The notes beneath the pieces were generated by a model, which worked only from the letters and a program-made list of their open reading frames with translations, ran no database searches and had not been told where the DNA came from. Below, in pieces: positions 3,489-29,104 of a stretch of DNA of 41,050 nt; within the stretch, counting starts at the first letter, position 1; each line of letters opens with the position of its first letter. The DNA comes from Psammoneis japonica (taxonomy: Eukaryota). Both the position numbers and the translations under genes were made by a program. Location of the stretch: assembly GCA_008632985.1 (NCBI GenBank), contig QPGO01000118.1, forward strand, positions 224,227 through 265,276, read 5' to 3'.

Positions 3489-3991
3489 AGTGGTGTATAA
3501 CACAAAACACGGAGGTTGTCGACAACGACCAGCGGTGCACTCCATGAAAGTGACTGATGCTACGCCGCTCGCTAATGGCGAGAACCGCGAAACAAAACGG
3601 AAGGCGTCCGTCGATTGGGTGCAATAGCCCTACGGTAGTATGTACTGTATGTGTTATGTAGGATGCATACCAGACACATGTTCTTGCTGACGTCGTACAG
3701 TATGTTTCAACGAATTCTACTGTACAAATCCTACTTATTATGTAACCGTGGCTGGATGTGAGGAACTGCTGGATAGCCATTGTATGCCTTGAGATAAACA
3801 TACTAACATACCAGAAACAATCACGTACTTTGGACCATTCCATGTCGGAACTCTAAATAACGATGATGTTTCGGGTGAAGTGCATCACTTTTTTCGTTGC
3901 GTTGGATGGCCGGCCATCACTTTTTGTGGATGTTCGTTGCTTTCGCTCTCTCTGCGGTTCGTGCCGTCGCATTGACAGGTTAACATCCATC

Positions 3992-5209: not shown

Positions 5210-5519
5210 TGTAGTGTGAGCCAACACAAACGAGTAGAAATAATAGAATAAGGTTACCATGGCCCAGCAGTCTTGAGTTTAGTCTTACGTTGCAGTGGTC
5301 GCCTAGTCTGGAGTGCAACATTGTTGATGCTCAACAGCCGTTTCTTTGTGAAAAAGAGCTGGTCGTCACCTTCACTCCGTTCTGGAGGTCTGTTCAACAT
5401 GACAATCGCCAGGGCGATTGCCGTCTGTGGTGTCGCTCGCACTCTCTCTTCTTTAGGCTAGTGCACTCCCGTTGAAGTAGCCTTGGCGCGGCTAGATGCA
5501 TGAGCTTGACCTTGAGATT

Positions 5520-8500
5520 GAGCTCAAATCCTGTGAACCGGGGACTGCACTCCAGCTGGAGAGCTGCTGCAACATTCAGAGAAAAGCCTGTCCTCATGGC
5601 TGACCCCACCCAAACTGACCAAGGGCCATGACAAAAGATGCAATCCAACCAAAATCCAATTGCAAGCTGAAGAGAGCAAAGCACCAAGTTGGAAAGGCAT
5701 GATGAAGAGATCAAGGCACCAAGTCAGAGTGCCCTGTGTGCACTGAGGGGGGGGGAGCAAGCAGCAGCTCAGGTTGGTGTTCAGAGCCTCCCAGGATGCA
5801 CCACTTCCCAGTGAAGGTCCAAATGGAGTGAGCAGCGTGCAAAGTTGCTGGGTGCTGCCCAGCACCCATGGCCAACCCCCACATGCACTGGTGGCAGCAA
5901 AAGAGCAATGCTGCTCCCCAAACACACGTGCACATGCCATCAGCAAAATTGCACCATTGGCCGACCACACTCTGTGCACAGCAAAAATGATGTGCATTTT
6001 GGCAAAATCTCTGATGATTTTTGGCCATGTCAAACTCATCTTTTGACACACTTGCTCAGCACACAAGTCAACAAAACAAACACTGTGAGGACTTCCTCAT
6101 CTCTCACAGGTTGTGCAGTTTTTTGTGGCATGCTGCACACAGCATCCAAGCCACATGCCTGAACAATGGCTTGTGCCAAGCAGCTGCAAGTGAGAGACAG
6201 TTGGCTTGGGTGGGAAGGTGGGGGCATTTTCCTCAAAAAAACATCATGGCCTTTTTTTCTTCTTGACACACATGCCATGGAGTTTTGTGATGCCAGCCAT
6301 GGCCATGCAGGGTGTGTGCAAGTTTTCAATGAGAGGAGCAGGGCCCTTTGATCATGATTTTGGATGAGGAAACCTTGACCTGTGTGCTTCTTTCCCTCCC
6401 ATGGCATTGCAAGGGTCCACATGTTGCCTTCACTGTGTTGCTGTTGTTGTTCAAGAAGACATTGCATGACAACTCATTTGTTTGGTCATTTTGAGAATTA
6501 GATGGAACAAACACTGCCGGATGTGAGGGCATTTGAGCAAATTCAGCCTCAGTCACTGGAAGCTGGTGCAGTGCAACAGAAAACAAGTTGACATGGCAAT
6601 CAGCAGGAAGTCCAGAATTGTGAGTTGACTGGCCATGTGGCCTGCCATTTGGGTGAGACAGTGACAGGCTTGAGCCACCAAAACTGTTGAACATCTGTCT
6701 CACAACACCATGGCAGGATTTGCTTGGTCCCTCACAAACTGACCCTGGCTGCTGTGATGGGGTCAATTTGACACAAATCCTGCATGCTGCATTGCTGGCC
6801 TGTTCCAGGCAAAAGAAAACCATCCTTAGATTGTTGGGGTTGACAAAACAACTGCTGCCCCTGTTTTTGGGTTTGGAAAATCCTGGCTGCTCTGCTTTGG
6901 CTCAACCCCTGATTCCCACAAAATGTGGTGCATGAACTCCCTGAGCTTTGATCTGGGCAAAAGTTTGGTGAGAATGACACCCACCAGATTTGTGCACCCA
7001 TCATCCCATGAAAGCTGCATGACTCCAGCAGCTTGTGCCTCACGAGCCTTGTGACAGATGATCACATCATGCACCCTCTTCAGCACAGCTGTCATGTTGG
7101 ATTCTTAAAGACAGAAAACAATGGAGGGCCCCTCAATTGGGGCACCCAGCATGCAAAACTTGTGACACAAAGTTTCTGCAGGCTCTGCTGCAATTTTCAT
7201 TGCAACAAATTCTGACCCAGGTGTCAAGGACTCAATGGCATTCTGCTGTTTTGAGTGCCACAAAAACAATGACCCCAAAATTAAACCTTCTCATCAAGTG
7301 ACAACTGGCATGACCCACACTGACAACACATGCTGTGGTGACACTCTTTTCCTGTGCCCAGGAAAAATCATGCGAGACAGCTTTGGCTGCCCCAGGTCTC
7401 TGTTCTGACCAACCACGCCTTTGTCCATCTCAAATGTGCCTTCATTCAAACAAGCAAATGTGCAAAGCACAGCATCAACATGGCTCCTGACTCATGGAGC
7501 CACACCACATGGGGTGACAGAATTGAAGTTGGTGTGACATCACAGTCTTGATGCAGAGCCAAGCTTGATCATCCATTGCAGGACTGTGTTGTGGCCAATC
7601 CAGTGAAGGCCCCAGGCAGTGAAAAATGTGGCAGCAGCCACAGCAGAGCAGCAGCATGCAACCTCTTCAGAGGTGTGACAGTTGTGCTCAGAAAGGTGCA
7701 AAATTGTCATTTGCATGTGAAAAAGCAAAGTGTGCACTGAGTGAGCAATCACACTTTGTGAAGTTGGCATTTCCATCAACACACACACAATGCAATGGCA
7801 AAAAAGTGCATGTTCAACCCTTGTCAATTGATGCACTGCATGTCCCACCACATGCATGAATGTGTGTGCACCACAAGTCATCTTCAATGACTTGCTCTCC
7901 ATCATTGTGCCACTGTCTGGCCAAATGAGTGGTGTTTGTCTGCACTCATTGCCAAATGTTTTGTCCAGCAGGAGCTGCAGTGACACAAGCAAGTGATGGC
8001 CAACAGTGCTTGTCATGAAAATCAATCAAATGGCACAGTCAGTCATCACATCCCAGCCATTGCCATTCAAGGCACAATGCAGAGTGGAGAACAAGTTGGC
8101 ACAGCACAGCCAACAGGAAATCTGGAACTGCAGATTCATTGGCTGCATGTGGCCTGGCACTTGGTGACAGTGACAGGCTCACTCAAACAACCAAAACTGT
8201 CAAACATCTGTCTGATGGCCCTGCAGCATCATTTGCTTGCATTGGGTTGGCCAAAATTAAAAAAAAAATTGGTCAAAATTTTGTTTGGCTCATGCAACTC
8301 AAGAAAGTTGGCCAAATTTTCTGGTGATTTTTTGATGGACAGAGTGTGTCTCAGTGCTGCAAAAATTCACTTCATTGATTGGGCAAAATCAAGCATCCAA
8401 AAACTCAGATTTGTTAAAAACAAGTGCATGTGCAGCAAACACACAAACACAAAACTGAAACAATCACACACCACCCCAGTTGGGGGTCAACCAATCAGCA

Positions 8501-11457
8501 TCACATGTGCCAAGTGGCTGTTTCATTGCCTGTTAGATTTGTGATCTTCTCTGCCACAAGAAAATCTCAAGCCCTCTTCACTGCATTCTCTGGCAGCATG
8601 AATTGTGCATGAGGCAGTGCTCTTTGGCAATGTGCAAGTCTTGTTCAGGATGACACCCAAGTGTGTGAGGCTTGGCACTGACCTCACCCCTCCAACCAAC
8701 AACTCACACACAGCTGCTGATTGCATCATTGCCAAACCACTTGCCATGAAACAATTGGGGCTGTGCCCTGCCATGGCAAGTCAAGTGTGTTTTCTTTCAA
8801 AGCTGTGCTGTTTTTGGCTGCTTCTTCTCACTGCATGTTTGCTTTTTCTGGCAGCCTTCAGGTGCCAACAGGGCTGCCAAATGTTGGGATTTGCACACTC
8901 ACCACTGCCACCAGCACTTCAAGAAGTGTGGAACAGAGCAAGGTCAAGGGCACTCATTGCTGTCTTCACCTCATCTTTGTGACTTTGCAAAAAGAGCTTG
9001 TTGCGTGTTTTTGGGAGCTGCATGTTTTTCTCACTCTTGCCACAGATGTGCACAATGCACTGCCTGGGTTGAGTTGTGCTGTTTCTGTTGCAATCCAATC
9101 TGTTTGGTGCATGAGCAGCACCAAGACCAGCACAAGCCCTGCTGCAATGGCAAAGGTGCCCCCAGCAGGCCCAGTGCCTCATGCAGCTCTGCAAACACAT
9201 GCTGCACAGTGCAAATGAAGCAGTGTCAACTGCTCTTCTGCCACCTGGTCTGTTCCTTCAGGCAACTGCAACTTCAACCATGGTTTTGTTTGAGAGGAAA
9301 TGGGATCTTTGTTCTTGGACAGGTTGTCATTTGCAGTTTGCAGTTGAGGAGGGTTGCACCCATCATGGGAGGAAGCTGGGCCTTTTGAGGATGGCTCAGC
9401 ATGTGAACATCCTCCACTTTTGGCCACAAAGCAAAACACAAGAAGTGTGCTTGATGCACAAGGGCAATTGCCATTTGCCATTTGCCCTCATTGCACTTGC
9501 CAAGTGTTTCTGCGGGAAGCTTTGGAGGCATTGACAGAGCAGTGCTGCAAAAAACATGGATCCAGCCCTCTGTGGGCAATGTTGGACAATCCCGTCAACC
9601 ATGTGTCAGATGCTTTTGAAGTGTGCAATGGCAACAAGGGTCTCCATCTTTGTTTGCCAGTCAAGCCAGCCAGGTGGGTGTTGACAATGGCATCACATGT
9701 GACTGTCATTGCAACAAGGGGTCCGAAAGAGCACCTCATCTGCCATTTCCTGTTGGCATTTTGCTTGCCACCCTGATGTTGGCCATTCCCATGGCCAGTT
9801 GAATGGCTGAGAAATGTTCAAAGAATGATGCTGGACTCCAAGGACCTTGTGCCAAGCCACCTGGAACCCAAGCAGCAAACATCAAATGGACAGCCCTGCT
9901 CTCATTCATGCAATGGTGCTGGCATCTAAATCAGCACATGTGCCACAACTGACCTCCCCCCCTGGCTGCCAGTGGGGCAGCTCCCATTTCAAGATGACAT
10001 GCACCAGCATTGCCACATTGACTTTGCAGCCAAGCTGGACCAAGAAATTGATGGCAAAAAATGGGTGGTTTGCCAAGACAGATGCAGGCTGGCCATCCAT
10101 GTTGCATCTGCTGCAGCACTGAGAATGGTGCTGTTGGTCAGCACACTGTCTGAAACCCATCTTTCACTGTGAAGGAGCCAAGCACCAGAAAACTGATGCA
10201 TCACAGCACCAACATTCAGATGTGCAAATCTGTCAACAGTGTGTGCTGCACCAGCCACAGTGTGAAATCCAAGACCCAACCCTCCACTGTCTTTTGCAAA
10301 GCTGCTTCACATCTCAAGCATCGTGTCTTTGAGTCTCCCATGTGCTGTGGTGGGGAGAAGTTCATGAGTGGATTCCTGGCTCAGGGCCTTTGCAATGCAG
10401 ACACTGACATTTGTGCAATGACTGTGTGTGATGTGGGGGTGCATCTTTCCTTGAAATTCAATCTCAGTTGTCTCAAAATGACATCAACAAAGTTGATGCT
10501 CAGTGTCTGTGCTGCACCTCTCTGCTTTTTGTTGTTGAAACTCATGTGCTGCTGCTGTTGACCCAACAAGACTTGCCTCGGGAAGTGTTTGATGAAACTT
10601 TTGGTTGCTGCATCATGAAAATGATGCCCACCCTTTTCAAGGTCAAGAAACACAGTTTGCAGATGTTGCAGTCCTTCTGGCAACAAGGCAGCAGTCACTG
10701 CCTGGTCAAAGCAGAGAAACTCTCCAGGAAGTTGTGGAAGTCAAAGGTTTGGATGCAGACTGGTGTGTGTTCCCTCACATTTGGAAATGCAGTTTAGCCA
10801 AGCATTCAAGCACAGGAGCTGAACAGCTCAAAGCCTGGAAAGAAATTTGCAAGCTGCTTGTTGAAAATGTCAGAGTTGGAGCACCAACCTGACTGGAACA
10901 CACTTGGTTGCCATGAAGTCTCTCTTTGGTTTCCTGCCAAGTTGGGTGCCTGAAGTGGCCCTGCTGCTCATCAAGGGCATCAGCCCACCCAATGGACTGA
11001 GCTTGGAAAGCAAAATGAGATTGTCTGCAAAGACTCTGGTGTGCACTGCAGGAGTTCTTTTGCAGGGTGTTGACAGCATGCAAGATGCAGCCATCAAGAG
11101 TTGGAGTTTTGTGACACCTTGTTCAAGGATTTGGACAGAGCAGTTGTGCATTTGCCCAGTCAAGATTCACATGGACAGTGCAAGCAAATCATTGCATTTC
11201 TCTCCTTTGGTCACAAACAGTTGAAGTGGCACAAAGTGCAAGTTCTTGTCTGAACATTGTCCTTTGCAAAAACAGACAGCTGCCATCCCCTGTTGTTTTG
11301 CAGTCACCAGAGTTTCCCAGGAAGCCTTTGTTGCCTGAGGTGCAATTTGCTGTTGGCTGAAAAGTCAATTTGCTGCAAACCCTTGGCTGTGTTGGCTGGA
11401 ATGTCCTCCAGAAAGTTCTTCATGTGAAGCACCTGGAGTCAAGCAGAGTTGGACAAG
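5520..11457. mobile_element. Heavily degenerate repeat/TE block, almost free of TA and CG; right part probably continuous with the MULE at 18600-21443
   Basis: TG/CA-saturated sequence with no intact ORF. Its right end is joined to 18600 by the gypsy TSD. A possible Ulp1-like remnant lies on the minus strand near 9940-10220. Confidence 0.6.
6577..8213 (+). repeat. Diverged dispersed direct repeat, about 125 bp (6577-6700 and 8087-8213)
   Basis: Shared blocks aacaagttg, cagga, catgtggcctg, gacagtgacaggct, accaaaactgt and aacatctgtct occur in the same order. Confidence 0.65.
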
Positions 11458-11461
11458 CTGG

Positions 11462-11893
11462 TGCCCCATGCATGTGCCAGGCGCTGAAAAAGAAGATGTG
11501 TTACGACTTTGTCGTTGTGAAAATTATGAGCTGGTTTAGAGTAGAGAAAATGGGATCGTGTGAACAGGGAATCTTGCCAAATCCCCACTCGTTCGCATTT
11601 GGATCGCATCAAATCGATCGTGCGTTCGCATTGTGGATCGTGCGAATCAAGCCATCACGCGCCATGCACGAGTGATGTCATCGTGTGGAATCACGCCACC
11701 ATCGTGGGCCAGACGACGGGCTAGTGTGCTTCACACGGATGCTCTCTTGGCATCCTTCTGGAATTGCCCAAGACCCAGAGCCACGCCCTCCTGTGGTCGT
11801 GCTTCCCAGGCACGTGTTGACAACACTGCGTTGCCACGCACAAGAGGCTCATGCACGGTCTCGCCGTGTTGTCCAGCAGCGAGGCATGCTGCA
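11462..11893 (-). repeat. Gypsy 3' LTR
   Basis: Ungapped match to 18164-18595 with about 31 mismatches; adjacent PPT. Confidence 0.95.
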
Positions 11894-11922
11894 CACTCCC
11901 CCATGATCAGGGCCGTCAGGTC

Positions 11923-13743
11923 TCACTGGTGACAGGGTGCAATCTGCCGTAGATTGTGCGTGTCCATCAGCGCTCCGTTCTGGACATGCAACGTGCCGTT
12001 GTCACACACACGGACAACTCTGGCGGGTCCTGCATGGCTGTCAGAACTGCACTTAGAGGATTGTTCCTGTTTGATGAGTGCCAATTGCCCTGCGGTGTGT
12101 TGACACTCCTTGCGTTTCTGATTTTCACGCTTGTTGTTCAAGTGGATGAGCTTCTGCTTTCTGGTTTCTGTGCACTTCCACTTGGCACGATGGGCAACAG
12201 ACAAAACCACATCGCGTCCGAAGACCAATTGCATGGGACTTGCACGCGTGGTCGCATGTGCCACAGCTCCAATGGCGAAGGCCACTGTGGAGAGGATGCC
12301 ACTCCATGGGTCATCTTCATCCAGTTCCATGTCCTGTGCTGAAAAGGAACGCACCATGTTGCCAAGTGTCTGGTGCACACGTTCCACCATGGCATTCGCC
12401 TGTGGATTCCGTTTGCTTGTGGGTTTCTTCAAAATCCCGTGGTCATTTTTAATCATCTGGCTAAATTCTGCCACAAATTCTGTCCCACAGTCATAAACCA
12501 CCTGGGTCGGCCACGGACATCTGCATGGCCACGTTTGTTCCACGATGTTTGCTGCAACGTCTGCGCGTTTTGCAGACACTTCTTTGATCTCGAACCACCC
12601 GGTTGCTGGGTCAATCATTGTGACTGCCCACAATTGCAAAGTGTCCTTTCCGCGTCTTTGAATTTTGTGTGGCCCCATCACATCTGTGCACAGAGTCTCC
12701 CATGGAATTGTCTCTGCGACCTTTTCTGGCAGCTTCCCACAACGCTGCGTTCAGCGTTTTGTCTTCTGGCATCGATCGCACTTGGCGCATGTAGAATGCA
12801 CCGTAGACCTCACACCAGGCCAATGGAAGTGCTGGGCAATGGATGTTTCCATGCGTGTCTCACCTGGATGACACAGTGTCTCGTGGCACCATTCAGTTAG
12901 CGGAACCTGCAATGACTGTGGTGCTGCGATTTTGTCCTTATGACAGATCAACTGTCGTGATGACCCTCCCCCACGACATGCGCAAATGGAGCAGTCGGAC
13001 GAGTCCTCAGCTCGTGAGAGCAGGCGCTTGTCCTTTTGTTGTGCTTTTTGAATGCGCTTGAAGCCAACAGGCAGAGACATCTCATCTTGCGCGTCTGCAT
13101 TAAAAGCTTCATGCAAAGGACGACTCGATGGAGTGTCTTTTACATCCAGATTGGCCTCGGAAGGCAAGCTGGGTGCTGGTCGAAGAGAGCGTCAGCGACT
13201 GGGTTATGGGCACCCTTGACACAGCGTGGTTCGGGACCGCATTCTTTGCGTGTCAACCGCCAGCGCATGACGCGCTCGGCATTGAACACTTTGTGCGCAA
13301 GATTTTTATGATCAGCACACACAATCATGCGATGACCAAGGAGAATCGTTCGAAATTCTTTCAACGTCTCCACAATGGCGAGCAATTCTCTCTCCGTTGT
13401 TGCACAATTTAATTGCGCACCATCAAGCTTTCTGCTGTAAAAGGCGATGGGTTCATCATTTTGGGATGCAACTGCTCCCAATTGATGTTTAGAGGCATCG
13501 GCACGCATCTCAAAGGGTTCATTAAAATCAGGATGTGACAATGAAACATCATCCGACATCACCCGTTTGACGGTTTCGAACGCCTCATCTTCAACGGACG
13601 TCCACTCCCACTCAACAGTCTCGCTTGCGAGTCGTGTTGGCGGAGCCAAGACTTCAGAACGTCCAATCCACGTGTCGCAGCAGCAGCTCACCATGCCAAC
13701 AAATGAGCGCAGGTTGCGTTTGTTGGTTGGGGTCGCGATTCGC
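11923..13743 (-). pseudogene. Gypsy RNase H and integrase, frameshifted and hypermutated
   Basis: ADASKHQLGAV, IAFYSRKL, ERELLAIVETLKEFR, ADHKNL; integrase H..LCHPG, CAKCDRCQ, TMIDPATGWFE, NPQANAMVERVHQTL. Confidence 0.92.
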
Positions 13744-13747
13744 TTGA

Positions 13748-15058
13748 GAGGGCGGTCCAGAGATCGCCTGGCACACTTTTTGCATAGAAACCACACGAGA
13801 GCCAAGCACGTACATTCCTGCATGGACGCAGCACAAAAACACAAAGCGGCACTCCATCACGACTCCTCTCGACACACCACCTGACGACAATCCATCAAAA
13901 TGGCATCGTCCGTGTCTTTCTGTAGCTCCTCTTTCACTTGCCCCATTTCTCCAAAAGGGCCAGGGATGGCTCATGCATTTCTGTTGTGATGGAACAATGC
14001 AAACGCAAGTTGTTTTTTCACTCCAAACTCTCAGAATGCAGTGCAACATGTTGTCAAGGCGAACTCAGTGAATGTCCACTCCATGAAAACAACAGAGACA
14101 TGATGCCCCAGAAAAACAAGCTCTGCACTCCCATGACAAGTTACAAAGCCAATTGTTCTTTTGGGCTTGCACTCTTGTGCTGTTTTTGGAGACTTGGCAT
14201 TGTGCATAATTTGCCCCTACTTTAACATCTAAATGTGTTGCACAGGCTTAGCAGATGAGGCAAATGAGTCACATGTTTCTGTGTCACAAACTACCTTGTG
14301 TCTGTAAGACTCAATGCAAGCCATCATGATCGCCATGGCTCGTTTCTCTGTCGAACAAAACTGCGCATCACCTTCTGGAGGCACGTCAAATGCGCGTCAA
14401 AATTGCTCGACGACAAATCTGAGCTGCTGAGAGCTTGAACATCTTCAGACACCACAGACCCAAGCTTCTACATTTACCATGAAGTCATCCGGATGCTGCA
14501 TCTGTGACTTGGACTTGTCGTCAGACTGCCGTGGCCGTTGCAAGGTGGAAGTGACATTCAAAGCAAGCACTTCTCTCTCAGGGATGGCCCATGGCAAGGG
14601 AGACCCTACAGAACAAAACAACAATGAGGAAAGACAACACATGTGTAAGTTGAAAGAATGTGAGCGTACAAGCACTCAACGAAATGCACAGCATGAATGG
14701 TGATGCATGAGTTGCGTGTTGATGCAACAAAATCGGCGGTGTCAACACCAATCTTCAGTTCAAAATTTCACCATGATCTACCCATGTGAACCTGTGCACT
14801 CTCGAGCTTGTCACATACCTCATGCTATGACGTGTGATATTCCGTTGAGAGTACACTACAAAGTACCTCAGAAACAACCGCATTTTTGAAATCGGCGAAA
14901 CGCCATTGTCCGTGTTATTTTGCGTGTTGTTTTGCGTCGCGAGCCAGAAAACACACCCAAAAACTGTTCTACAGGGCGAAATGTACTGAATCTACACAAA
15001 TTTGGGTTGTACCAGGCCACGTAGAAAATGAACGGGCCGAGAACTGTGGTACGCCCAC
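13748..15058. mobile_element. 1.3-kb non-autonomous DNA-transposon-like insertion splitting gypsy pol
   Basis: Removing it restores KVDAI-K-RIATPT. Flanked by TTGA (13744-13747) and TTAA (15059-15062). Imperfect terminal inverted match: gagggcggtccagagatc vs gtgggcgtaccacagttc. Confidence 0.8.
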
Positions 15059-15062
15059 TTAA

Positions 15063-16356
15063 TGGCGTCGACTTTATTAGGCATTGGTCGCATTACGTCT
15101 CTGTTGACCAGATAACCCAAGTGTTCTAATTGGGTTTGACAGAAGTGAGATTTAGTTGCGTTAACTTTTAGTCCTGCTTTCTGGACCCTCAATAAAACTT
15201 CTTCAAGTTTGTTGAGGTGATCTTCACAGGTGCCTTTCGTCACGACGAGAAGGTCATCTAAGTACGTTCGAACGAACGATAGATCTTCAAATAAGCCTGA
15301 CATGCGTTCTTGGAAAATGTCTGGCGAATTACATAATCCCATGGGCAATACCTGCATCTCATACTTGCCCCACGGGAAGATGAGCGTGCAGAGCTTCTTG
15401 CTGTCAGTATCCAATCGGATATGATAATAGCCCATGTTTAAATGCAGCGATGTAGCCCACATAAAGCCTTCGAGCTTAAGTAGCATATCTTGGATATGAG
15501 GAATCGGATAAGGCAATCGCTTGATCCGTTTATTCAGCTCTCTGCAATCATTAATAAAGCGTACCGTTAAATCTTTCTTCGGTATGATAAATGATGGAGC
15601 TGCCCATTGGGATCGGTTAACGCGTTTGAGAACACCGATACGTACTAGGCGTTCTACTTCTTTACGTAGCGTAGCTTCGTACGCACGAGGTACTTTATAC
15701 GGACGAGCGTGGTATGGTTCTACGCCCTCCTTGAGTTGGATATGGTAGGGTTCTCCCTTCCATTCTCCTAATGTCCCATCAAATAAGGACTCATGGCGTT
15801 TCAATAGTGCCAAAAGGTCGTTTTGTTGAACTATAGAAAATCCTATTGCCTATCGCGTTATGTCCTCGAGGCAGGCCGGCGCGTACTTAGCGTCTAAAAT
15901 ACGCAAAATCCGGTCGGTTTCCGAATATAAGGCTTCTGGATCTTGAAGATAGAAGGAGGTTTCCACCGTAGCATCTACGTGCCTCATTGGTACTTCTCCA
16001 TTGACTAATGGCCACTCTATCATCTGTTTAGAGAAGACAATATCAATGCCTTGTGTCTCCAGAATGTCACGTCCAATAATCATATCGTACTTGCCCAACT
16101 TTCCGTTGTGTATGTGGACGGTATGTTTAAGTTCTGCAGTTTCGAATAATTCTGGTAACCAAAATTTAACGGTACAGTCGTTAGACGTACTGAACGAGCC
16201 TGCTACAGTAGTCCAGTTTGTCTCAGCCGTTGAATGGCTTCGCAGACGTTTACAGTATCGACTATCGAGTAAAGCACTGCTGGCGCCACTATCTAGCAGT
16301 GCCTTGATGGTTTGAGTCTTGCCCTTGCCATGTTTAGCATTCATAGCTATGAACAA
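15063..16356 (-). pseudogene. Gypsy aspartic protease and reverse transcriptase (one in-frame TAG at 15850-15852)
   Basis: ALLDSGAS, YDMIIGRD; RT WAAPSFIIPKKD, RELNKRIKR, LPMGL, TYLDDLL. ORFs 15850-16356 and 14992-15813 share a frame. Confidence 0.93.
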
Positions 16357-16950
16357 GATTGGAGTAAGATGAGTCTTTTTAAAACTCGTTTGCGGGATTG
16401 GCCTACAACACGTGTACGATGGTAATTCAGTTGTTCATTCATGCATTCATCCAATGTGTTAAAACTGCCTGCATCGTGTCGGCCCCCTTCTCAGGCGTCC
16501 GAATCTTCGGAATCACTTGACGCATTCGCACAACGAGCTGATGGATGGCAAGACGATTTGACATTCTGAATTTTTTTTGCACTGGAAACTTCGTGCGCGC
16601 TACACGAGCATCGCTAAAAATCGGCGACATGACGGCGGTGCGTTGTCGTGATGACAGCGACGACATCGACGTGTCCTGGAGTCTTTGAGCATTGTGGACA
16701 TTTAGATTGTTAAATTTGCGAACACATGAAGTCATGAAATGGACCAGGAGCAGCCTTCGTTCAATGCAAAACGTCACACCAACACTGACTCTGTTTTTTG
16801 ACTGTCATTTGATGCACTCAATTGTCGAACGATCATGAGCCAGTCCGGGCAGCTTTCTTTGCGCATTGATGTTCTTAAGAGCATTGTTGATGACGCTGTC
16901 AAGTGCACATTTTAAAGTCGTTCTGCAAGACAGTCAGAAAAATGTCATCG

Positions 16951-18102
16951 TCATCGTCGGCGTCGACGGCAATTTGTCGCGCAAATCGCAAAAAAAGCAC
17001 GACAGTTGTCTGTCTGACATTGCGCCACTGTGCGCTGGTTGTGCGAATGCCTCAAGTTGAGGTCGCGGAAGTGATCAAGCTCCTCCTCGCGTGCCTTGCG
17101 CTTTTTCTGAGCGTTGGCAAAGAACTCCTCGACCTTCGATCCGATGAGAGCACTGACATCTTCCTCGTTCCGAGGTTTTGCATTGGGCTTGCTGCCTCCG
17201 TCATTGGAATGTCCAGTCTTGACACGTTTCACGTGGTGCTTGAGCTGACGGCAATCCTCCGTATGATGTCCACAGTTAGTCCCGTGCAGCATGCATGACT
17301 TCTGGGTGTTCCGTTGGGTCGTGATCAACGACTCAGGATTGTCCGTTCTACGTCCCCATTTACGTGGAACCTCAGCATGTTGGTCCTGGTTGCCTTCGGC
17401 AAGCTCGACCTGCTCGATGCGCTTGCAGAACTGCACAAATTCGGCGACAGTGTGCGCCAACGGGTCAAAATTCTGCAGCGTCATGAACTTCTGTCATGCG
17501 TTCGGCACACCGCACTCGAACATGTCGCACAGTTCGTCATCAGGTGATGGTGCCGGTGCTTCTCCGTCCTCCATCACGGGTGGAAACTGAGAGACACAGC
17601 TGTTAATTTCAACAGCCCTCGCGACGCAGTCACGAGTGGAAACCTCTGTGGGCTTGCGCATGAAGCACCTCAGATGACGCTTCTGCAACAGTGCCGCCCC
17701 ATGTGGGAAGACACTTTCCTTTAGCTTCGCGACGCATGCTGCGCACGCAGCGTTGGTTTGGGATGCCTGCTTGTCAGCGGCATCATTGAATGATGTCAGA
17801 GCATCGCCCTGCAGCAGGTCACGCACAAGGGCAAATTTCGCTGGCCCGGTCGTGATGTTTTGTCCTTCGTGCACGCGATCCACATTGCGCAGAAAGATCA
17901 GGAGTGTCTCGCATGTAGCCGCAGAAAGGTGCGGAATGCCCATCTCGTGCGTTGGACTGTCCGGATCAGCGGGGTTGTCACGCAGCTTGAACGTCTGGCA
18001 CTCGCCCTGCTGCAGCTCTTTCTTCTCCGGCCGTGCGAACGGAATCGGCGGCTCAATCCGCTTCTTCATGGTCGTTTTAAGATTTGTCGGTCCTGCCAAC
18101 AT
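16951..18102 (-). pseudogene. Gypsy gag (internal TGA at about 17494; zinc-knuckle-like CMLHGTNCGHHTEDC)
   Basis: Two in-frame ORFs just downstream of the 5' LTR. Confidence 0.8.
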
Positions 18103-18163
18103 TTCGTAGTTTCGTTTCTGTAGATTTCGTCACCTCGCACAACATGCGGGAGTGACATCACTG

Positions 18164-18595
18164 TGCCCCATGCATGCACCAGGCACTGAAAAAGAGGGTG
18201 TGTTGCGACTTTGTCGTTGTGAAAATTATGAGCCAGTTTAGAGCAGAGAAAATGGGATCATGTGAATGGGGAATCTTGCCAAATCCCCATTCGTTCGCAT
18301 TTGGATTGCATCAAATCGATCGTGCGCTCGCATTGTGGATCGCGCGAATCAAGCCATCATGCGCTGTGCACGAGTGATGTCATCGTGTGGAATCACGCCA
18401 CCATCGTGGGCCAGACGACGGGCTGGTGTGCTTCACACGGATGCTCTCTTGGCATCCTTCTGGAATTGCCTGAGACCTAGAGCAACGCCCTCCTGTGGTC
18501 GTGCTTCCCAGGTGCGTGTTAACAACACTGCGTTGCCACGTACAAGAGGCTCATGCACGGTCTCGCTGTGTTGTCCAGTGGCGAGGCATGCTGCA
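18164..18595 (-). repeat. Gypsy 5' LTR
   Basis: Paired with 11462-11893; followed by TSD CTGG. Confidence 0.95.
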
Positions 18596-18599
18596 CTGG

Positions 18600-21443
18600 C
18601 ACCTCAGCTCTTCTGCAGTGTGCCAGCATGTCATTGCAATGCACTTCATTCAAGTTGTGAGCCCAGGTGGAGTGCAAGCACTTCAAGGCAGCTGTCTTGC
18701 ACCATCAGAAAGCAGCCCCAGGCAGTTGATCAGCAGACCCCAACTTTGCTCCCCACTCAGAACAACCACAGACTGTCCCATCTGGGTGTTGGTGCTTCTT
18801 GATCTTCTGGTTCTTTCTGCATGCACTTTGATGGTGCATGCAGAGCATGAAGCTGCCCACACACATTTCAGCATCAGCTTGTCCACTGGCTCCATGCCAA
18901 AGGTTTGATGCCAGGCAAACCCATGCTGCATGCATCCTGTGACTGAAACAAGCCACAAAGTGTGTGCTCAACCTGGGCATCAACAAATTGTGCACACTCT
19001 CAATCTCTGCCAACAACTGGTGCCAGCTCATCATTTTGGGCTCAGAGTGGGAACTGCTGAGCTGTCATTGTTCTCATTGGCATCATCATCCCATGCATCA
19101 ATGTTGCTGATTTGAGCAAAGCCAATGGCACCTCAGTTCATGACCAGCACGGCACATGTGACAGCCCATTGTGCACTTGGTCAGCAGAGCAGTTGTGCAA
19201 AGACAATGCCACATCACACAAAGCATTTCAAACAACTCTTTTCTCATTGTGGCAGAGGCTCTTGAAAATGACACATCAAGGTGAGGCAGTGCTTGTGAGC
19301 AGCATGGTGGTGAATTTTCTGAGGCAGAGCAACTGAGTGATTTGGTGCCAGATGAAAATGTTTCAATGGTCATTTTTCCACCTCAAACCCTTCTTTCTGA
19401 ACAAGCCCTCAGTTCTTAACCTCCACCCCCCTTTTGTGTGTGACAAAATTCTCAATTGGCACAAAATGCATGGATTGCATGCTAAAAATTCTCTCAGATC
19501 ACATGTCTTGAAAAGGAGAATGGTTGAAACAAGCTCCTCACACGCGCAAAAAGAGGGGCAAGTTCTCAGGATTTGTTTGGGTGATGGGGTTTGAGCTGGA
19601 GACATGATGATCATTGAAATGCAGCATCCATCCACCAAAATGTGTGGCGTGGTTCTGCCCCAAAAGGTTGAAAGTGACACTGCCTGTGTGATGATTGCAC
19701 ACCACTGCACAGTGGAAATGTTTGTGCCACGAACCTGCAAGCAGATTGTGGTGCACAAAGCCATCAAACTTGCCACTCAACTCCAATTTCATGACAGACA
19801 TTGTGTGGGCACATCTGATGCCCATTTGCTGATGCTCTGTGCTGTTGCAATGTGGGGTCCAGGAGCCATCAATGCAGACAATGAAGACATGCCCAAACTT
19901 GGGGAGTGCAGTTTGACTGGCATTGGTGTTTTTGCCATCATCATCCTTGCCTGCATTCACTGGGTGGTCATTTGTTGATGAGACACCCTCTTCTTTGTGT
20001 TTGTGGGCCAACCCCAGAAGGCTGTGGGTCTTGAATTGTCTTGTTCTTGGACAGAACATTGAACATCATCACAGCAGATAGATTTGCACCTCTTGTGTTC
20101 AAGATTGGCTTGCACTTGTTGAGGATGTGTGATCTGACATGGGTCATGGTGTTGACCATGTGGGGGCACTTCATGCAATGTGGCTTGACTTGGCAAAATG
20201 CTCTGCTGTCACCTTTGCATTGGGCTGCACTGCAAAATTCGGGGCACACATTTCCAGGCTGTGTGGTGGTGGTGGAGCAGTGGCCAGGTGACTCTCTTTT
20301 TCATTCCAAAGCTGGTGACCTGGTGGCTCAAGCTAGCTCAGCAGCTCCACTTTTTGAGGTGGCAAGCACAGCCCCATTCCTTGTCAAAAACCTCAACATG
20401 AATGAGCTCATGCATCCATGCCAGGGTGAAGATGGCCCACCCACAGATGCCTTGAGGATGTGCAAGAAGTTGATGAGCAGCACCTTGGACGCTGTCTCTG
20501 TGCCTCATTTTTGCTGCTGCTGGGACACATGAGTGATCACAGCCAAGCCTTGGTGGCACCAGGGAGATTGTCAAATGTCTTGGGCACACGGAGAGTCAAA
20601 CACATCTCACCCAAGCAGCATCACAGCCAAGAACCTTTCTTTCTCAACACATGCCACCCACAGCACATCTTGCTTGCACCATGGTTGGCAAAAACCTGGC
20701 TGTGGTGCTGCAAAGCTCATCTCTCTCTTGCAAGTCTCTGTCTTTGAAAGCAGCCATGTGGGCTGATTGAAGGGACCTCAGTGTCCAACAGAGCAGGAGG
20801 GGCCACTTGAGATGCCTGGTTTGGGCCAGAGTGTCCCGTCAGAAAAGTGGGGCAGGAGGCGCCAGGTGTCCTGGCAGAAAACATGAAAAGAGCCCTCTTG
20901 TGGTGGTTGGCACACAATTTTGCATCAACCTTCTTGCTGACTTGAGGCAAAAAGGCAGGGTGCAGTGGTCTCTTCTTCCCACACACCCTCTGAAACACAG
21001 CGCACACAGCCAAAAGGCAACAAAAACAAGTTGTGTCACATCAAGAGCACAGGTTGGGTGCTTTTTGTACCCTTTGGCACAATGCAACAACCACATCACA
21101 GTGCAGCTGCTCCAAGTCTCTTTTGCACCCCTTCCCTTTCTCAATTTGATGACCCTGCCATCAAATGGTGGGTCGTTGGGGGGTGGGGGCAGGAGCAGCG
21201 GTGAAGAAGACTCAAAAGGCGGCCTTCTTTGCCAAAATGCAGCCCCAAGCTGCACCTCCTGCACCCAAATGGCCAATGGCCCCTTTCTCATTTGTTTCAT
21301 TGAGTCTTCTGGGTCAATCTGAGCACGCCTCACCTTTTGAGATGTTTCTTGGTCTCGTCTTGGTGTGGAACACACCAGCTGTAAAAAGGTCGCGCTGGAT
21401 CCGGCTGCAATGGTGACGTGGCGTGACGTGGCGTGACGTGCCC
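18600..21443 (-). mobile_element. Degenerate MULE/Mutator-like transposase region
   Basis: Minus-strand SWIM-like remnant PKFGHVFIV...HCNSTEHQQMGIRCAHTMSV (about 19790-19900) and an ICGW remnant (about 20440). Terminal (gtgacgtggc)n repeat at about 21414-21440, where composition returns to normal. Confidence 0.55.
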
Positions 21444-21627
21444 AACAGGGAGGCCATTGCATGTTGCGACGGTCGGAAACGATGTTGTGAGTTCTTGATG
21501 GCTCTCCCTCACTTTTTTGGATTTTGCATGCTACTCCACAGTGTATTTAATTCTGCTTCGTTTGATTGACTGTACCGTCATACCGTACAGTACAGTGTCA
21601 TACTTTGGTGCCGGTGCAACATTCATC

Positions 21628-22874
21628 ATGTCACCTCTCTACAATGACGACAAGAAGAAATCCTTCTCATCAGAGGATGTAGAACACGGCAACAAGAGCC
21701 AAAAGATTTCCTCAAGCACAATGGATGATAACTCGTCCGAGTCAAATCATCACACCAATGAATCATCATCATCGCCGAGCAGCAGCAACAATGACAACAC
21801 GACCTTCTGTCCTTTTAATGCCGAATACTCTCATCACGAGTATATTTTTGTTGTTTGTGCTGGATTAGCTTTATCGTTCAACTCCGGTTACATCAATGGC
21901 GCGTGTCTGTCGGGATTTTTAGTCGATACTCGTCAGTCTGTTTCGGCCTTTACTGGTGCCTACACGGTATCGGCTTTGGCCTTGGCGGATGGCAATGTCG
22001 ATTTGTTTGGATTTCAGTTCAGCATGATTCTAAGCTTTATTGCCGGTGCCACCCTTGCGGGTCTCTTGACACCCAAGGCACAAGCGTGGCGCATTGCACC
22101 AACCTACGGACCCACCTTTTTGGTGGGTGGCTGCTTTCTCTTGATTGCCACTCTGCTCGCCATGTTGGATAGTGACGATTCAAAACGACTCTTTTATTTT
22201 GCGGCAGCCGCCAATGGAGTTCAGAATGGAATTTCGAGCATGTATTCGTCCAATCTCATTCGTACCAGTCACTTGACGGGAACGTCCACCGACATTGGCT
22301 TGCTCGTGGGACAGTGTCTTCGTGGAAATCGTAAACAGCTTTGGAAGCTGCGCTTGTTGGTAGGATTGGCAACATTTTTTTGGCTGGGCGGAATCGTGTC
22401 CTTGTATGCAACTCGAAAATTCACAAGACACTCTCTTTTGTTTAATACAGTCTTGTTCTTTTCGATTGGACTTTCGTTGGTAGTGTTTTTGAGCAAAAAA
22501 TTGGGCATTGGCATGTTGCAAGCCACGGTGGGTTCATGGAGTTGGCAAGAGGCCTTGCACAAGCTGAGTTTGTACGCGGACGATGGACGACCCATGTCGG
22601 CCGAATCCATGATGGAAGTTTTTGACAAGATTGATGCCGATGGCAGCGGTACGATTGAAGAGGGCGAGTTGTACATCACGTTGAAGGAGGCGGGATTGAC
22701 ACGATTGAGTCGCAAGCGAGTCAGGGCTATGATGATGTGGCGGATGAGAATTCGGATGGACTGTTGTCACGAGAGGAATGGAAGGAACTTGTGATGGGAA
22801 CAGTGTCAGATAAAAGTGCCAGTCAAGGACAAGTAGAGCAGCAGTTTAGCATGGGCCAACACAAACGAGTGTGA
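21628..22874 (+). pseudogene. DUF1275 + EF-hand paralog (copy 2); 1-nt deletion at about 22735 in the second EF-hand (real or sequencing error)
   Basis: Collinear with 3992-5209. Copy 1 reads atgatgagtgtg and copy 2 atgatgatgtg. The restored frame has CAG in place of copy 1's TAG stop and ends at the TGA that begins the LTR (22872-22874). Confidence 0.8.
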
Positions 22875-23216
22875 CAATGTTCATGTTTGCATGTTTTTAC
22901 AACAACATCGGACCTCCACGATTCAAGTCAGAGATCCAAGATTCGAACCCCGTGTGCGATGCTCAGTCTCGAATCCCGCGGAAGCCGAGTCACGAATGCG
23001 ATGTTTGTTCCTAGCTTCGCGCTTGTTTAACTTTGCGTTTCCTTTAGATGGCAGCTGCATCTGCTCATAAAAACTGCTCATAATCTTTCTAACGTACTGA
23101 TTATCACCTCTCAACTTTTGGCACAATAAAGTTACTGATTGATTGTTGTGTCGCAACCACAGCTTTTAATCACTGAAAGTGCAGACGAATCTTAGAATTC
23201 CGGCTACTTTCCCACA
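22872..23216 (+). repeat. Copia-1 5' LTR (345 bp)
   Basis: TG...CA; matches 29105-29446 with a few substitutions and two small indels. Confidence 0.93.
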
Positions 23217-23230
23217 CGCTTCCTCTGCGC
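23215..23230 (+). promoter_or_regulatory. Putative primer-binding site complementary to the tRNAi-Met D-arm
   Basis: CACGCTTCCTCTGCGC versus CACGCTTCCGCTGCGC, the complement of the conserved eukaryotic tRNAi D-arm (15/16); directly abuts the LTR end. Confidence 0.6.
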
Positions 23231-23290
23231 AATCTACAAGTTAAGTCAATCGATCTTAAGCTCTCGATTCTACTTTACTTTGCTGTCACT

Positions 23291-24804
23291 ATGGTCACGC
23301 AGACACGAACCGCGGCTGCTCTAGCTGCCTCTGTTGCAGCTCCCGCTGCAGCACCCGCTGCAGCTCCTACCACTGCTGCTGCTCCGGCAACAGCACCTGC
23401 TCCTGCAGCCGCTCCAGTTGCTCCTGTACCTCCCCCAGTCGTTCCTCCCGGTGCACCTCCAGGAGGAGGTGGCGGAGGAGGTGGAGGAGGAGGCGGAGGT
23501 GGAGTCCCACCAGGTGGAGTCCCGCCAGGTGGACCACCATTGGCACCTGTGCCACCACTGCCGATCTTCGCGTTGACTCCAGGTCAACACCGTCCCAACA
23601 ACTTCATCGACTACGGCACATCGCAAGGCCTCAAGCTTTGGAACGCCGCTACTGCACCGCTGCCGCACGAGTTCAACGGCGATTCAGAAGGTCTCAAACG
23701 GTTTTGTGAGACACTCAGTCAACGAGCTGCCGAGGCAGGATGGAAAACAGGGGCAGGAGACACACTCACCATTCCCGACGTGAATGGAACTCCACGAGAT
23801 CTCATCTCCGAGTACGGACTACTCACTCTACAGGATGTTAGAACCCACGCGAACACCTTCGCGAATCTGCGAATCTACCTACGAGACAAGCACAGAACAA
23901 TGTGCAGATGGCCGAGGCGATCTCTCAATCCCTTACGGAGGAGGCAAGAGACAAGATATTGGCTGAGATAGATTCCTACACGATCAATGGAAATCAAATC
24001 GGCACACTATTCTTCAAGCTACTTACGCAAAAGGCCATCGTTGACACACGCTCTACCACCAACTACTTCCGCGAGAACTTGTCAAGCCTGGATACCTACA
24101 TGGCGGCTGTTAACTCGGACATCGAAGAGTTCAACAAGTACGCCAAGCTCAACGTTGATGGACTCCAAGCTAGAGGAGAGCAGTGCGACGACCTTGTCAT
24201 GAACCTATTCAAAGGATGCGCCGCAGCTGCTGACGAAGTGTTCGTCAAGTACATCATGTTATACAAGGACAGGTGCGACGACGGTGAGGAATTCACGCCG
24301 ACGCAAATCATGACGTTGGCACTGAACAAATGTACTAACCCCAAGCGCGAGAAGAAGTGGGGAGCACCATCACCGGCTGAAGAGCAAATCGTCGCGCTTA
24401 CAGCCAAGGTAGACTCCATCAAGGATCAGAACCTTCAGCTATCTAAAGCTTTGAAGGCCAAGGCTGGTTCAACCAAGGAAAGAAGCACACGGTCAAGGAA
24501 GACCAAGACCACTCCACGTCAGAGACAGAAAGCGGACGAAGCCTGGAAGAAAGTCCCGCCTAAGGAGGACGCTCCTAAGAAGACAGTGAACGGTCACCAA
24601 TACTATCACAAGCGCGTCAACAATCGCGACTATCACTGGTGCCCACATCACACTGCTTGGGTCATACACTTACCTGATGATCCGGGCAACCAAGGCTGTA
24701 GACTCCGCAAGCAACAGTCTGCTCCATCCACAGACACGTCGGACAAGAAAGTCTCCTTCGCAAGTGCTATCTCTACCATCCTAAACGAAGTGGATCAAGA
24801 GTGA
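23291..24804 (+). pseudogene. Copia-1 gag with an Ala/Pro/Gly-rich N-terminus, frameshifted by an 8-bp duplication
   Basis: ORFs 23291-23971 and 23902-24804 join as FANLPTRQAQNNVQM once one GCGAATCT is removed; YHWCPHHTAWVIH knuckle-like motif. Confidence 0.85.
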
Positions 24805-27800
24805 CTGCTCTACAGGTTCACTCTGACACTGCTGCTGTCCTTGCAGATAGCCGTCACTGTGTCAGTGCTCCTGATAGCGGTCGCTGGCGTCATGAAATGT
24901 GCAGCACCGATCTGGATCATACTACTATTCATGATGCTATCCCTTCCTTCAGAAAAGTGTAAGCGCCTGTCACATGCCGTAATGACGCTGGGTGAGTGGG
25001 TCATCTCACATATCCTGGCTGAACTAGGCACAAGACGAGTTAAGACTTACCAGCGACGGCCAACGACGAGGTACTGCGCACGGTATCATACGTCGACGAG
25101 GCCAGGTCACCGCTCCAGAGTGGCCACCAAGAAGGCTCACTATGTCATTACGCGATACAAGACGGTTAGAGCGTACAACTCAACCACACCACACCGTCCC
25201 GAGCGAACGGAGCCCACTTACGATTCGGACTCATTCGTAATCGGTGTCGACTCGCATTCTTCCTGCACCATGTCCAACGACGAGGCACACTTCATTGGTC
25301 CTCTTCGCAAATCCAACAAAGTGGTACTCGGTGTCAAGGGCTACTTACGTGCTAAGGGAGAGGGAACAGTGCATTGGGCAATTGAGGACGACATGGGACG
25401 AGTGCACAGCATCAAAATTCGAGACGCGCTACTCGTACCGGACTTACCTCACTGTCTTCTCTGCCCGCAGCAATGGAGCCAACAAGCTAATGACCACACG
25501 CCAGAGCCTCACGGAACCGTATCTTGGACTAGGGACGACGGACTATTACTCATGTGGGATCAACGCAAGTATCATCGCCTGATTCCATGGTCCGCCAACT
25601 CTAACGTCGCCAAGATGCGCTCCGCACCCGGTTCAACAAATACCGGACCTTTGCAGCCGCTGTCGAAGAACAAACCGATATCGAAACTATCGAGCACGTG
25701 GCCTATCAAGCTCACATCATACCACCAGACGACGAGAGTATTGCGAATGATGACGAGGCTGCAATTGATACAGACGTCTTCAGAAGTCCATCCGAGACAC
25801 GTCCTTCCGAGACGCAAGACGCACGCAACACTACTGATGAGGATGCTCCTGTCTTATTTGAGCCAACAGACGGAGCAAGTCGTTCAGACTCAGACGAGGA
25901 AAACCTAAGGGATTTCACGACACCGGAGGTACAGCAGGACTTACCGGAACCCATCAACATCATACAAATGATGACGCCCTTGCTGCCACAGATGACCAGG
26001 GTGAACTATTGCGTTGGCATTACCGCCTGGGCCACATGCCATTCAAAATGATAAAGCTATTGGCCGCCCTAGGCATTCTACCGAAACGCCTTACAAAGGT
26101 ACACAACCCAAAATGTGCCGGCTGCCTATACGGTGCCATGACGAAACGACCATGGCGCTCCAAGTCCAAGCGGAACCGACGAATCCACTTGGCAACTTCG
26201 CCTGGAGAAGCCGTATCTGTCGACCAGCTCGAGAGTCCTACTCCTGGATTGATCCCACAGCTCAAAGGGAGACCTACGAAACAAAGGTATCGAGCAGCGA
26301 CAATTTTTGTTGATCATTTCAGCGGATTGGGATACATATATTGCAGAAAGGACTTACCTCAGCCGAAACGCTCGAAGCCAAGCACGCTTTCGAGGCATTC
26401 GCACGCCGGATGCACGTCCGTATTCAACACTACCACGCCGACAATGGAAGATTTGCTGATAATGCTTTCATACAAGACGTCAAGAAGCAACAGCAAACAA
26501 TATCCTATTGTGGGGTCAACGCCCACTTCCAAACGGCATCGCGGAGAAAAGAATAAGGGACCTCCAAGAGCAATCTCGGAAGCAACTCCTGCATGCAAAA
26601 GTGAGATGGCCAACGGCTATTGAGTTGAACTTATGGCCAAGCGCTCTCAGGAACTCAAACGAGATCAAGAATCACTTACCGAATCACGAGGACGGTTCTT
26701 CTCCGCTGGAACGTTTCTCGTCCGTCAAGGTCCAGCCTAATCTCAAACAACACCATACCTTCGGCTGTCCCGTCTACGCCTTGCACAACCGGTTGCAGGG
26801 AGGAGGTAGGCTGCCTAAGTGGGACCCAAGGGCAAGGTTAGGAATCAATTTGGGACCATCAACAAGACACGCAGGTTCAGTTACCTTGGTTTTGGATTTG
26901 CAGACCGGACTCGTATCGCCGCAATTTCACGTACAATTCGACGACTTCTTTGAGACCGTTCGCCCTTTTGCTGGGAATCCTTCTACATTCTCACAATGGC
27001 AAGGCATTACAGGTTTCAGACAACTCAAGACAAGGAGTACTTTCAACATCTTTGGGAAATCAAGTGACGTACCGGTTGAGGGATCAGTCCCTACCACAAC
27101 GGAACCACCTGAGCCGAATTCGGATGTCCCGTCTCAGCTGCTGCATCCTACTGATACGTCTACCACTGATGACTCATTTGATAATGCCCAACCGGATGAT
27201 GAAATGCTATACACGCCTCCAGATGATTCTGACGCACCATCTGAGCCACAGCGCACTATGGGTCAACCCAGTACCAGTAGGTCCGGCCGACAACGACGCC
27301 CGACCGAAAGGATGCGCGAGAGCCAACTACAACGGGCTCAAGGCATTGTCTCCTACAATGCAGAGGCAGAGGCATATTATGATGCGATGCACGAGGATGA
27401 TTACAAACTGCAGGACGATATGGACTCACCTATCTCTTTTCTGGCGAGCTCGGACCCCGACACCATGTACTTTGATCAGGCTATGCGTGAACCTGACAGA
27501 GACGAATTTATCAAGGCCTGTGTTAAGGAGGTCAATGATCATATTGAAAGGAAACATTGGATACTCATTCCAAGAGAGGACGTACCTGACGATGTTGATG
27601 TTCTCCCTTCGGTATGGTCTATGAAGCGCAAAAGAGATATTAAGACCCAAGCCGTCTACAAATGGAAGTCCCGACTTAATGTGCACGGCGGAAAGCAAGA
27701 GTATGCTGTCAACTACTTCCAGACCTACTCTGCCGTGGTCTTCTGGTTCACTATCCGGCTCCTACTGATCATTGCCATTCTTAAGAAGTGGCATACACGC

Positions 27801-29059: not shown

Positions 29060-29104
29060 GACGTTTTCGAGTCATCATTCCACCCGACATTGTTGAAGGG
29101 AGTG

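Follow-up and report, generated by a model that had tools for sequence, protein, structure and literature searches.

Two of the described systems closest to the pattern reported here are considered first. In the repeat-induced point mutation (RIP) of Neurospora and other fungi, C:G pairs are changed to T:A, mostly by conversion of CpA to TpA, and the affected DNA is enriched in TA; the process depends on duplication, a sexual phase and RID-type enzymes. The second system, described in a 2026 preprint on the chlorarachniophyte Bigelowiella natans, is the only published match that we found (10.64898/2026.01.13.699255). There, A>G or T>C changes, every one of them at TpA, make up 230 of the 231 de novo mutations in two hypermutable viral regions of mutation-accumulation lines. 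They arise at ~1000 times the background rate, with the process active in some lines only. The targets are integrated giant-virus and virophage DNA, and Mettrop et al. propose an ADAT2-like DNA deaminase. Here a related footprint is described in DNA of the diatom Psammoneis japonica. It is best read from a gypsy retrotransposon at 11462-18595 (minus strand) of a 41,050-nt stretch of contig QPGO01000118.1, referred to below as the window, which also carries two copia elements. Comparison of the two long terminal repeats (LTRs) of this element, together with its coding sequence and surroundings, points to a post-insertion chromosomal process that turns TpA into TpG or CpA (the A:T pair at the A of 5'-TA becomes G:C, whichever strand is struck), a reading to which we assign a probability of roughly 0.88.

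The window resembles B. natans in that the changes are almost only A:T to G:C, occur only at TpA and yield both TpG and CpA. In both cases they are limited to integrated foreign DNA in bounded regions, and over the long term TpA is depleted while CpA and TpG are gained. Enrichment of RT and endonuclease Pfam families among the depleted genes is a further feature of B. natans. The two cases differ in host, here a stramenopile, and in target, here LTR retrotransposons, a Helitron-like open reading frame (ORF) and anonymous DNA. Erasure is near-saturated in the diatom, with an observed/expected ratio (o/e) for TA of ~0.02 compared with 0.45 in the B. natans viral region. CpG erasure and a 3' pyrimidine preference are seen here as well, and the rates are inferred rather than measured in lines. 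The words trinucleotide, CpG, LTR and diatom are absent from the preprint text. Full-text literature searches returned no published description of TpA erasure in diatoms; one apparent 'TpA' report (PMC4504042) was rejected, as the match is to the word 'Tpase'.

With RIP the window shares dinucleotide-specific transitions in chromosomal copies of mobile DNA, on both strands, with coding capacity destroyed and divergence inflated. The direction is opposite, however: instead of C:G to T:A changes that create TpA, the hallmark of RIP, the reverse change is found and TA is depleted. Single-copy old DNA is erased here as well. The LTR pair offers a natural experiment on TpA erasure, placing it on integrated chromosomal DNA and on both strands, and carries the signature into another algal lineage, the second and an ecologically dominant one, as well as into retrotransposons.

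Differences between paired LTRs

The gypsy element is bounded by an intact 4-bp target-site duplication, CTGG, at 11458-11461 on the left and 18596-18599 on the right. Its left LTR (11462-11893, TG..CA) is the 3' LTR in the sense of the element, which lies on the minus strand, and its right LTR (18164-18595) is the 5' LTR; both are 432 bp long. Compared as 11461-11894 against 18163-18596, the LTRs form a gapless alignment with 31 differing nt, which group into 24 events. The original prediction had counted about 24 sites and about 31 nt by eye. Both figures and its classes are exact, except that the remaining transitions split 2+2 here rather than 3+1. The events of pyrimidine-purine (YR) type consist of 7 CA/TG tandem doubles, 3 TA/TG, 3 TA/CA, 4 CG/TG and 2 CG/CA. 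The others are 2 A/G, 2 C/T and 1 A/C, the sole transversion among the 24. Differences are concentrated at the 241 YR-step positions, which hold 27 of the 31 differing nucleotides, with 4 at the other 191 positions. The YR steps common to both LTRs are TG (41), CA (31), CG (26) and TA (2). Each LTR retains 5 TA, where base composition predicts 22.4 for the left copy and 23.0 for the right. When 31 transitions are placed at random, TG/CA doubles arise at a mean of 0.41 with a maximum of 5, and at least 7 occur in 0 of 20,000 trials.

These changes separate the two LTRs of one element with an intact CTGG duplication and so arose after integration, as had been proposed. An origin before integration, through ADAR-type RNA editing, reverse-transcriptase error or deamination of cDNA, has some points of resemblance, since A-to-G change with a 5' U/T neighbour recalls the preference of ADAR as given in the B. 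natans preprint (10.64898/2026.01.13.699255), and an RNA-like sequencing run covers parts of the elements. However, RNA editing or reverse-transcriptase error would be strand-biased and largely common to both LTRs, an argument already made in the original prediction, whereas the changes are LTR-specific and on both strands. They distinguish two LTRs copied from one template, and both products are present in each (3 TA>TG-type and 3 TA>CA-type singles). The surrounding non-element DNA is equally erased up to the target-site duplication, a tract within the one element is spared, and the strand that is struck tracks the TAY context described below rather than the sense strand. We consider an origin before integration extremely improbable.

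The origin of the doubles was examined with a two-copy model, in which each ancestral palindromic step is lost independently in each LTR, with probability p and to either product, and sites fall into shared, single and opposite-double classes. For TA the gypsy counts of 2/6/7 give p = 0.76 (0.59-0.88) per LTR copy with a goodness of fit of 0.42, and imply ~21 ancestral TA compared with the 22-23 expected from composition. For CG, none of 5000 simulations reached the counts of 26/6/7; taken by itself, CG yields p = 0.10 per copy and predicts 0.15 doubles. Because the TA model fits and the CG model is never reached, the gypsy doubles represent TpA struck on opposite strands in the two LTRs, an origin that is less certain for 2 of the 7. 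Each LTR copy has independently lost about three quarters of its TpA. A site struck on opposite strands in the two LTRs appears as TG against CA, and one struck in a single LTR as TA against TG or CA. A site struck on the same strand in both leaves no visible difference.

The alternative that all changes stem from CpG, with the doubles formed by deamination of methylated CpG on opposite strands and TA derived by a second, RIP-like C>T change, builds on a decay that is real. CG>TG/CA change is present as a minor component, at 6 gypsy LTR sites (p 0.10 per copy) and at 13 of 55 conserved Arg codons of copia-2. Methyl-CpG deamination would account for this slower part, including Arg>Cys/His/Gln/Trp changes in the coding parts, but it can neither remove TA nor give seven doubles while 26 CG are still shared. 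TA is, moreover, ancestral at 12 of 13 (gypsy) and 29 of 36 (copia-2) conserved Tyr codons, and old DNA is TA-free rather than TA-rich. A wholly CpG-derived origin is therefore very unlikely.

Some of the LTR evidence nevertheless weighs against an origin of the doubles in TpA. Two of the seven gypsy doubles lie in the disfavoured YTAR contexts C-TA-G and C-TA-A. The LTRs of copia-2 (34789-35070 and 38972-39251) differ by 5 CA/TG doubles, 10 CG against TG/CA, 1 TA/TG and 4 A/G; for these a TA-only model (3/1/5) fits badly (goodness of fit 0.008), and a CG model (9/10/5) fits (0.16). The claim that copia-2 LTRs show the same pattern is thus borne out by the doubles but not by the balance of classes, where CpG differences dominate (10 compared with 1 TA/TG). 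The proposal that a TG/CA pair marks a palindromic step struck on opposite strands is supported; in the gypsy LTRs a TA origin of that step fits, and for the five copia-2 doubles a CpG origin also fits. The copia-2 LTR doubles are likely a mixture of TA and CpG origin.

Raw divergence between the gypsy LTRs is 31/432, or 7.2%, compared with 4/191, or 2.1%, outside YR steps, and LTR dating would overestimate ages in this genome, as was anticipated. Changes at 16113, 17494, 17649 and 18484 are private to this gypsy copy, all other contigs of the family differing there. Those at 16113 and 17649 are CpG>TpG, the private T at 17494 closes the gag frame, and 18484 is the sole LTR transversion.

Direction, strand and context of the changes

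The direction of change was read from conserved codons in pol. For the gypsy element, 120 related pol proteins were listed, and the 87 that reach 950 aa were aligned to the element by tblastn; a codon was taken as conserved where agreement reached at least 70% among at least 30 homologs (524 codons). In the mutated part, which encodes RNase H and integrase, only 1 of 13 conserved Tyr is still Tyr, 7 having become Cys and 5 His. In the spared protease/reverse transcriptase (RT) tract, 10 conserved Tyr are now Tyr (8), His (1) or Trp (1), a difference in Tyr loss with a Fisher probability of 0.0007. Other conserved residues of the mutated part are kept at 32 of 33 positions (Cys 4/4, His 6/7, Trp 12/12 and Gln 10/10); of 24 conserved Arg, 19 are unchanged and 2 have become Cys. 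TA>TG (16) and TA>CA (12) make up 28 of the 51 unambiguous single-step changes in the mutated part, the next largest class being CpG-type (6), compared with 1 TA-type change among 17 in the spared tract.

The same analysis of copia-2 gives a similar picture; it used the 66 homologs that reach 1400 aa among 120 listed. Of 36 conserved Tyr in this element, 22 have become Cys and 7 His (29 of 36 together), 4 are still Tyr, and the others are Phe (2) or Trp (1). TA-type changes account for 41 of 91 unambiguous single-step changes (30 TA>TG and 11 TA>CA) and CpG-type for 20. Conserved Cys, His, Trp and Gln are kept at 70 of 76 positions, and Arg at 41 of 55, with CpG-type changes at 13. A>G change outside TpA amounts to 5 events in each of the two elements. 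Since conserved Tyr has become Cys or His while Cys, His, Trp and Gln are kept, TA is judged from these alignments to be ancestral, and TG/CA derived, in the mutated coding parts of gypsy and copia-2. Neither derived TA alleles nor A>G change confined to the sense strand, either of which would have told against the original prediction, is what these codons display: the loss of conserved Tyr to Cys and His involves both strands.

Other copies of the gypsy family were compared at 40 of 1179 variant rows, none of which is any of the 13 TA-linked LTR sites; there they carry TA at 8 places where the window has TG or CA, and CG at 2 places where it has TG. The use of copia-1 as an outgroup for copia-2 was rejected, as blastn gives no match and tblastx only 25-60% over short pieces. 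Its use as a control with the copia-2 homolog set was rejected for poor alignment (98 of 290 codons identical).

Both strands are struck and both TpG and CpA are produced, in ratios of 16:12 in gypsy, 30:11 in copia-2 and 3:3 among the LTR singles. The prediction of activity on both strands is thereby upheld, also by the 7 Tyr>Cys compared with 5 Tyr>His in the gypsy coding part. Strand-coordinated runs are not supported, with 16 and 19 runs observed in gypsy and copia-2 compared with 14.7 and 17.1 expected (permutation P 0.76 and 0.84); post hoc regional splits reach P 0.04-0.05 only.

Most TA left in mutated DNA have the context YTAR, CTAA exceeding its share in the baseline 2.7-fold and TTAA 2.6-fold. 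ATAT is absent from the 156 retained TA, compared with 34 of 505 in the unmutated baseline (chi-square 60, three flank classes). By retention, a preference for a 3' pyrimidine looks the same as one for a 5' purine two bases upstream, but polarised Tyr codons tell the two apart. Where a pyrimidine precedes the Tyr codon the outcome is Cys at 21 and His at 2, and where a purine precedes it is Cys at 8 and His at 10 (Fisher 0.0017). This split by the preceding base indicates that the mutated A has a pyrimidine on its 3' side. The changing A thus preferentially precedes a pyrimidine, giving the motif 5'-TAY (5'-RTA for the paired T), and context decides which strand is struck. In copia-2 the sense strand seems to be favoured (22 Tyr>Cys compared with 7 Tyr>His; P 0.008); transcription was considered as the cause and rejected because the TAY context explains this bias.

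Normal, depleted and erased DNA across the window

Over the whole window the o/e is 0.29 for TA, 0.62 for CG and ~1.5 for TG/CA, and a map in 250-bp steps shows three states. The first, with normal TA and CG, comprises copia-1, the genes and gypsy 14779-16461. In the second TA is lost and CG kept, as in the rest of the gypsy element (TA o/e 0.17-0.18), copia-2 (0.14) and a Helitron-like region (0.19). In the third both are lost, and this state is found in the blocks that received the gypsy and copia-2 insertions. The TA o/e follows a series by age, from copia-1 (0.66) through gypsy and copia-2 (0.14-0.18) to the old blocks (~0.02).

The old non-genic block hosting gypsy extends over 5501-11457 and resumes at 18600-21250, and each 250 bp of it holds 0-2 TA and 0-3 CG. 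That hosting copia-2 extends over 30750-34788 and resumes at 39252-40000. Pooled over 13,116 nt, the old blocks contain 23 TA and 64 CG compared with 1515 TG and 1541 CA (3056 together), with an o/e of ~0.02 for TA and 0-0.09 for CG. None of 40 ORFs in the erased blocks has a Pfam match. Borders between elements and erased blocks are abrupt, and the erasure reaches up to the target-site duplication. Erased regions have edges at ~5500, 21250 and 40250 on the 250-bp map, and the TA erasure is confined to these bounded regions: genes at 3857-5209 and 21499-22794 keep a TA o/e of 0.45, compared with ~0.02 in the neighbouring blocks. By sequencing depth the mutated gypsy family has hundreds of copies. 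Copia-1 lies at ~20-35x single-copy depth yet is unmutated, and single-copy old blocks are erased too.

So extreme a composition could suggest an artefact of assembly or base calling at modified bases, with TG or CA called at random for one true sequence, and TG/CA alternation is what strand-specific miscalls would be expected to yield. However, Logan contigs of a public run (X1) are identical to 10500-11490, a stretch that runs from the background into the LTR, and differ from 18570-21826 at 6 of 3257 nt, although this run may be the source data of the assembly itself. The states also form consistent codon changes, Tyr to Cys or His, and the window contains a sized N gap, which we take to be typical of short-read scaffolds. 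Such an artefact seems to us highly implausible.

The gypsy element itself is divided. Its gag-side internal part (16462-18163) retains 16 TA in 1702 bp (o/e 0.17) and 134 CG (1.13), and the part with integrase, RNase H (Pfam rve and RT_RNaseH) and a 1.3-kb insert (11894-14778) retains 33 TA in 2885 bp (0.18) and 134 CG (0.74). Between them, a tract covering protease, reverse transcriptase and the edge of the insert (14779-16461) has 118 TA (0.91) and 91 CG (1.10). Its left edge falls within the 112 bp that separate the TA at 14667 and 14779, and its right edge within the 141 bp without TA that follow the one at 16460. TA are spaced ~100 bp apart to the left of 14779 and mostly 10 to 50 bp apart within the tract. 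The tract crosses the junction of RT and insert and matches neither domain nor element borders. The process thus acts in sharp-edged tracts independent of element borders, leaving this 1.7-kb protease/RT tract untouched. The sparing may reflect either patchy targeting or later conversion. The insert (13749-15057) is not of pol origin and sits in pol precisely at the RT/RNase H boundary (homolog residues 484/485). This insert contains no ORF of at least 110 aa, has no second copy within the window and shows lower family depth than the rest of the element.

Copia-2 (34789-39251, plus strand) is the older of the two copia elements and is internally 5'-deleted. It retains 31 TA (o/e 0.14) and 261 CG (0.78), TA being lost and CG partly decayed. 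Its coding part (35070-38929) begins right after the 5' LTR at residue 580 of an 1859-aa homolog; with the gag/protease/integrase part deleted, it is a non-autonomous copy. A Helitron-like open frame of 759 aa with the domains DUF6570 and Helitron_like_N (3-2279, minus strand) runs off the window. Its region is poor in TA, with CG partly kept, so that a DNA transposon is also affected.

Copia-1 (22867-29446, plus strand) is young and essentially unmutated, with 7 LTR mismatches and an o/e of 0.66 for TA and 0.94 for CG. Its 5' LTR reads aatGtt and catGtt (22879 and 22885) where the 3' LTR reads aatAtt and catAtt (29112 and 29118), exactly as noted in the original prediction. Both of these first hits, in the 5' LTR, are at ATAT. 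Contigs of a second run (X2) are cDNA-like and cover genes and elements without the erased blocks. Missing from them are 14 stretches of 70-113 nt in copia-1 (23660-27972), of which 12 have canonical splice sites on the minus strand (5' GTAAGT at 8, GTGAGT at 2, GTAACT at 1 and GTACGT at 1; 3' AG). The minus strand of copia-1 contains 11 GTAAGT and its plus strand one, and the rest of the window has none on the minus strand. These antisense introns sit within the plus-strand pol coding sequence, and no ORF longer than 147 aa is found in the spliced antisense RNA. Copia-1, the one unmutated element, has a multi-intron, non-coding antisense transcript. A link between this transcript and targeting is a matter of speculation.

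Candidate mechanisms and related signatures

The TpA process could represent enzymatic DNA editing in silent chromatin, a defence that would kill integrated mobile DNA. The simplest candidate mechanism is deamination of adenine to inosine at 5'-TAY, to which we give slightly less than even odds. A second process, from CpG to TpG or CpA, operates alongside it at a rate ~ten-fold lower and may be ordinary deamination of methylated cytosine. Over time the two together yield DNA nearly without TA or CG, the state of the old blocks.

The same footprint could be left by other chemistry, in which the T of 5'-RTA is modified and read or repaired as C, or in which error-prone repair miscopies TA. Thymine modification, such as oxidation of the hydroxymethyl-uracil type, is known from other protists, and polymerase errors occur at WA motifs. 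Because 5'-TAY is 5'-RTA on the other strand, a T target is equally compatible with the context data. The sequence itself offers no argument for these routes, however, and a polymerase-error route is expected to add transversions, which are rare (1 of 24 LTR events). We consider them unlikely.

Further points weigh against a TpA-directed process as set out above. Losses per copy of 0.76 for TA and 0.10 for CG make the TpA process roughly ten times faster than CpG decay, and with a pairwise divergence of 2.1% at non-YR positions it greatly exceeds ordinary substitution, but these ratios depend on just 4-5 ordinary substitutions. Polarity comes from pol codons rather than from the LTR sites themselves, and the baseline of the context test is drawn from different sequence than the mutated tracts. 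The spared gypsy tract could also have been restored by gene conversion from an unmutated copy. Finally, sequence cannot distinguish an altered A from an altered paired T.

The process has also left traces elsewhere. In metagenome contigs, 79 loci encode relatives of the gypsy RT, 77 of them with at least 5 conserved Tyr positions. At 11 of these 77 loci at least 30% of the conserved Tyr are replaced by Cys or His, at 40 none are replaced, and the reverse change, to Tyr, numbers 0-2 per locus. Two of the 11, L063 and L064, look like one element assembled twice. Sharp-ended, TA-free and CG-rich tracts are found in L063 (4001-5500) and L067 (1-1500). Environmental contigs with distant gypsy relatives (L063, L067, L047, L073, L059, L018, L060 and others) combine such tracts with Tyr>Cys/His replacement and indicate that the process exists in other organisms. 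A search of the metagenome contigs with a degenerate 32-nt LTR pattern gave 0 matches.

Taken more broadly, diatoms and chlorarachniophytes, perhaps with SAR more widely, might share an old enzymatic defence that edits chromosomal adenine at 5'-TAY in tracts of silent chromatin. It would act at about a hundred times background and reshape genome dinucleotides, as a mirror of RIP that needs no duplication. We offer this as a tentative proposal that is doubtful in its full extent. The third base of the motif, TAY, narrows the search for the enzyme. In affected genomes a bias is to be expected in LTR dating, reconstruction of repeat families, gene prediction and dinucleotide-based binning, and TAA and TAG stops vanish from affected DNA, leaving long false ORFs.

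Several other features of the window were observed. The genes at 3857-5209 and 21499-22794 are two copies, 17.6 kb apart, of a membrane-protein gene with DUF1275 and EF-hand domains. Their DNA identity is 84-91% and both frames are open; all named relatives are diatom proteins, with a best identity of 54%. A strong strand skew (GC skew 0.28-0.48, AT skew 0.23-0.31) is present at 30001-32000, around the N gap at 31745-32028. Within the block that hosts copia-2, a tandem repeat of 3 copies of ~160 bp occupies 34072-34523.

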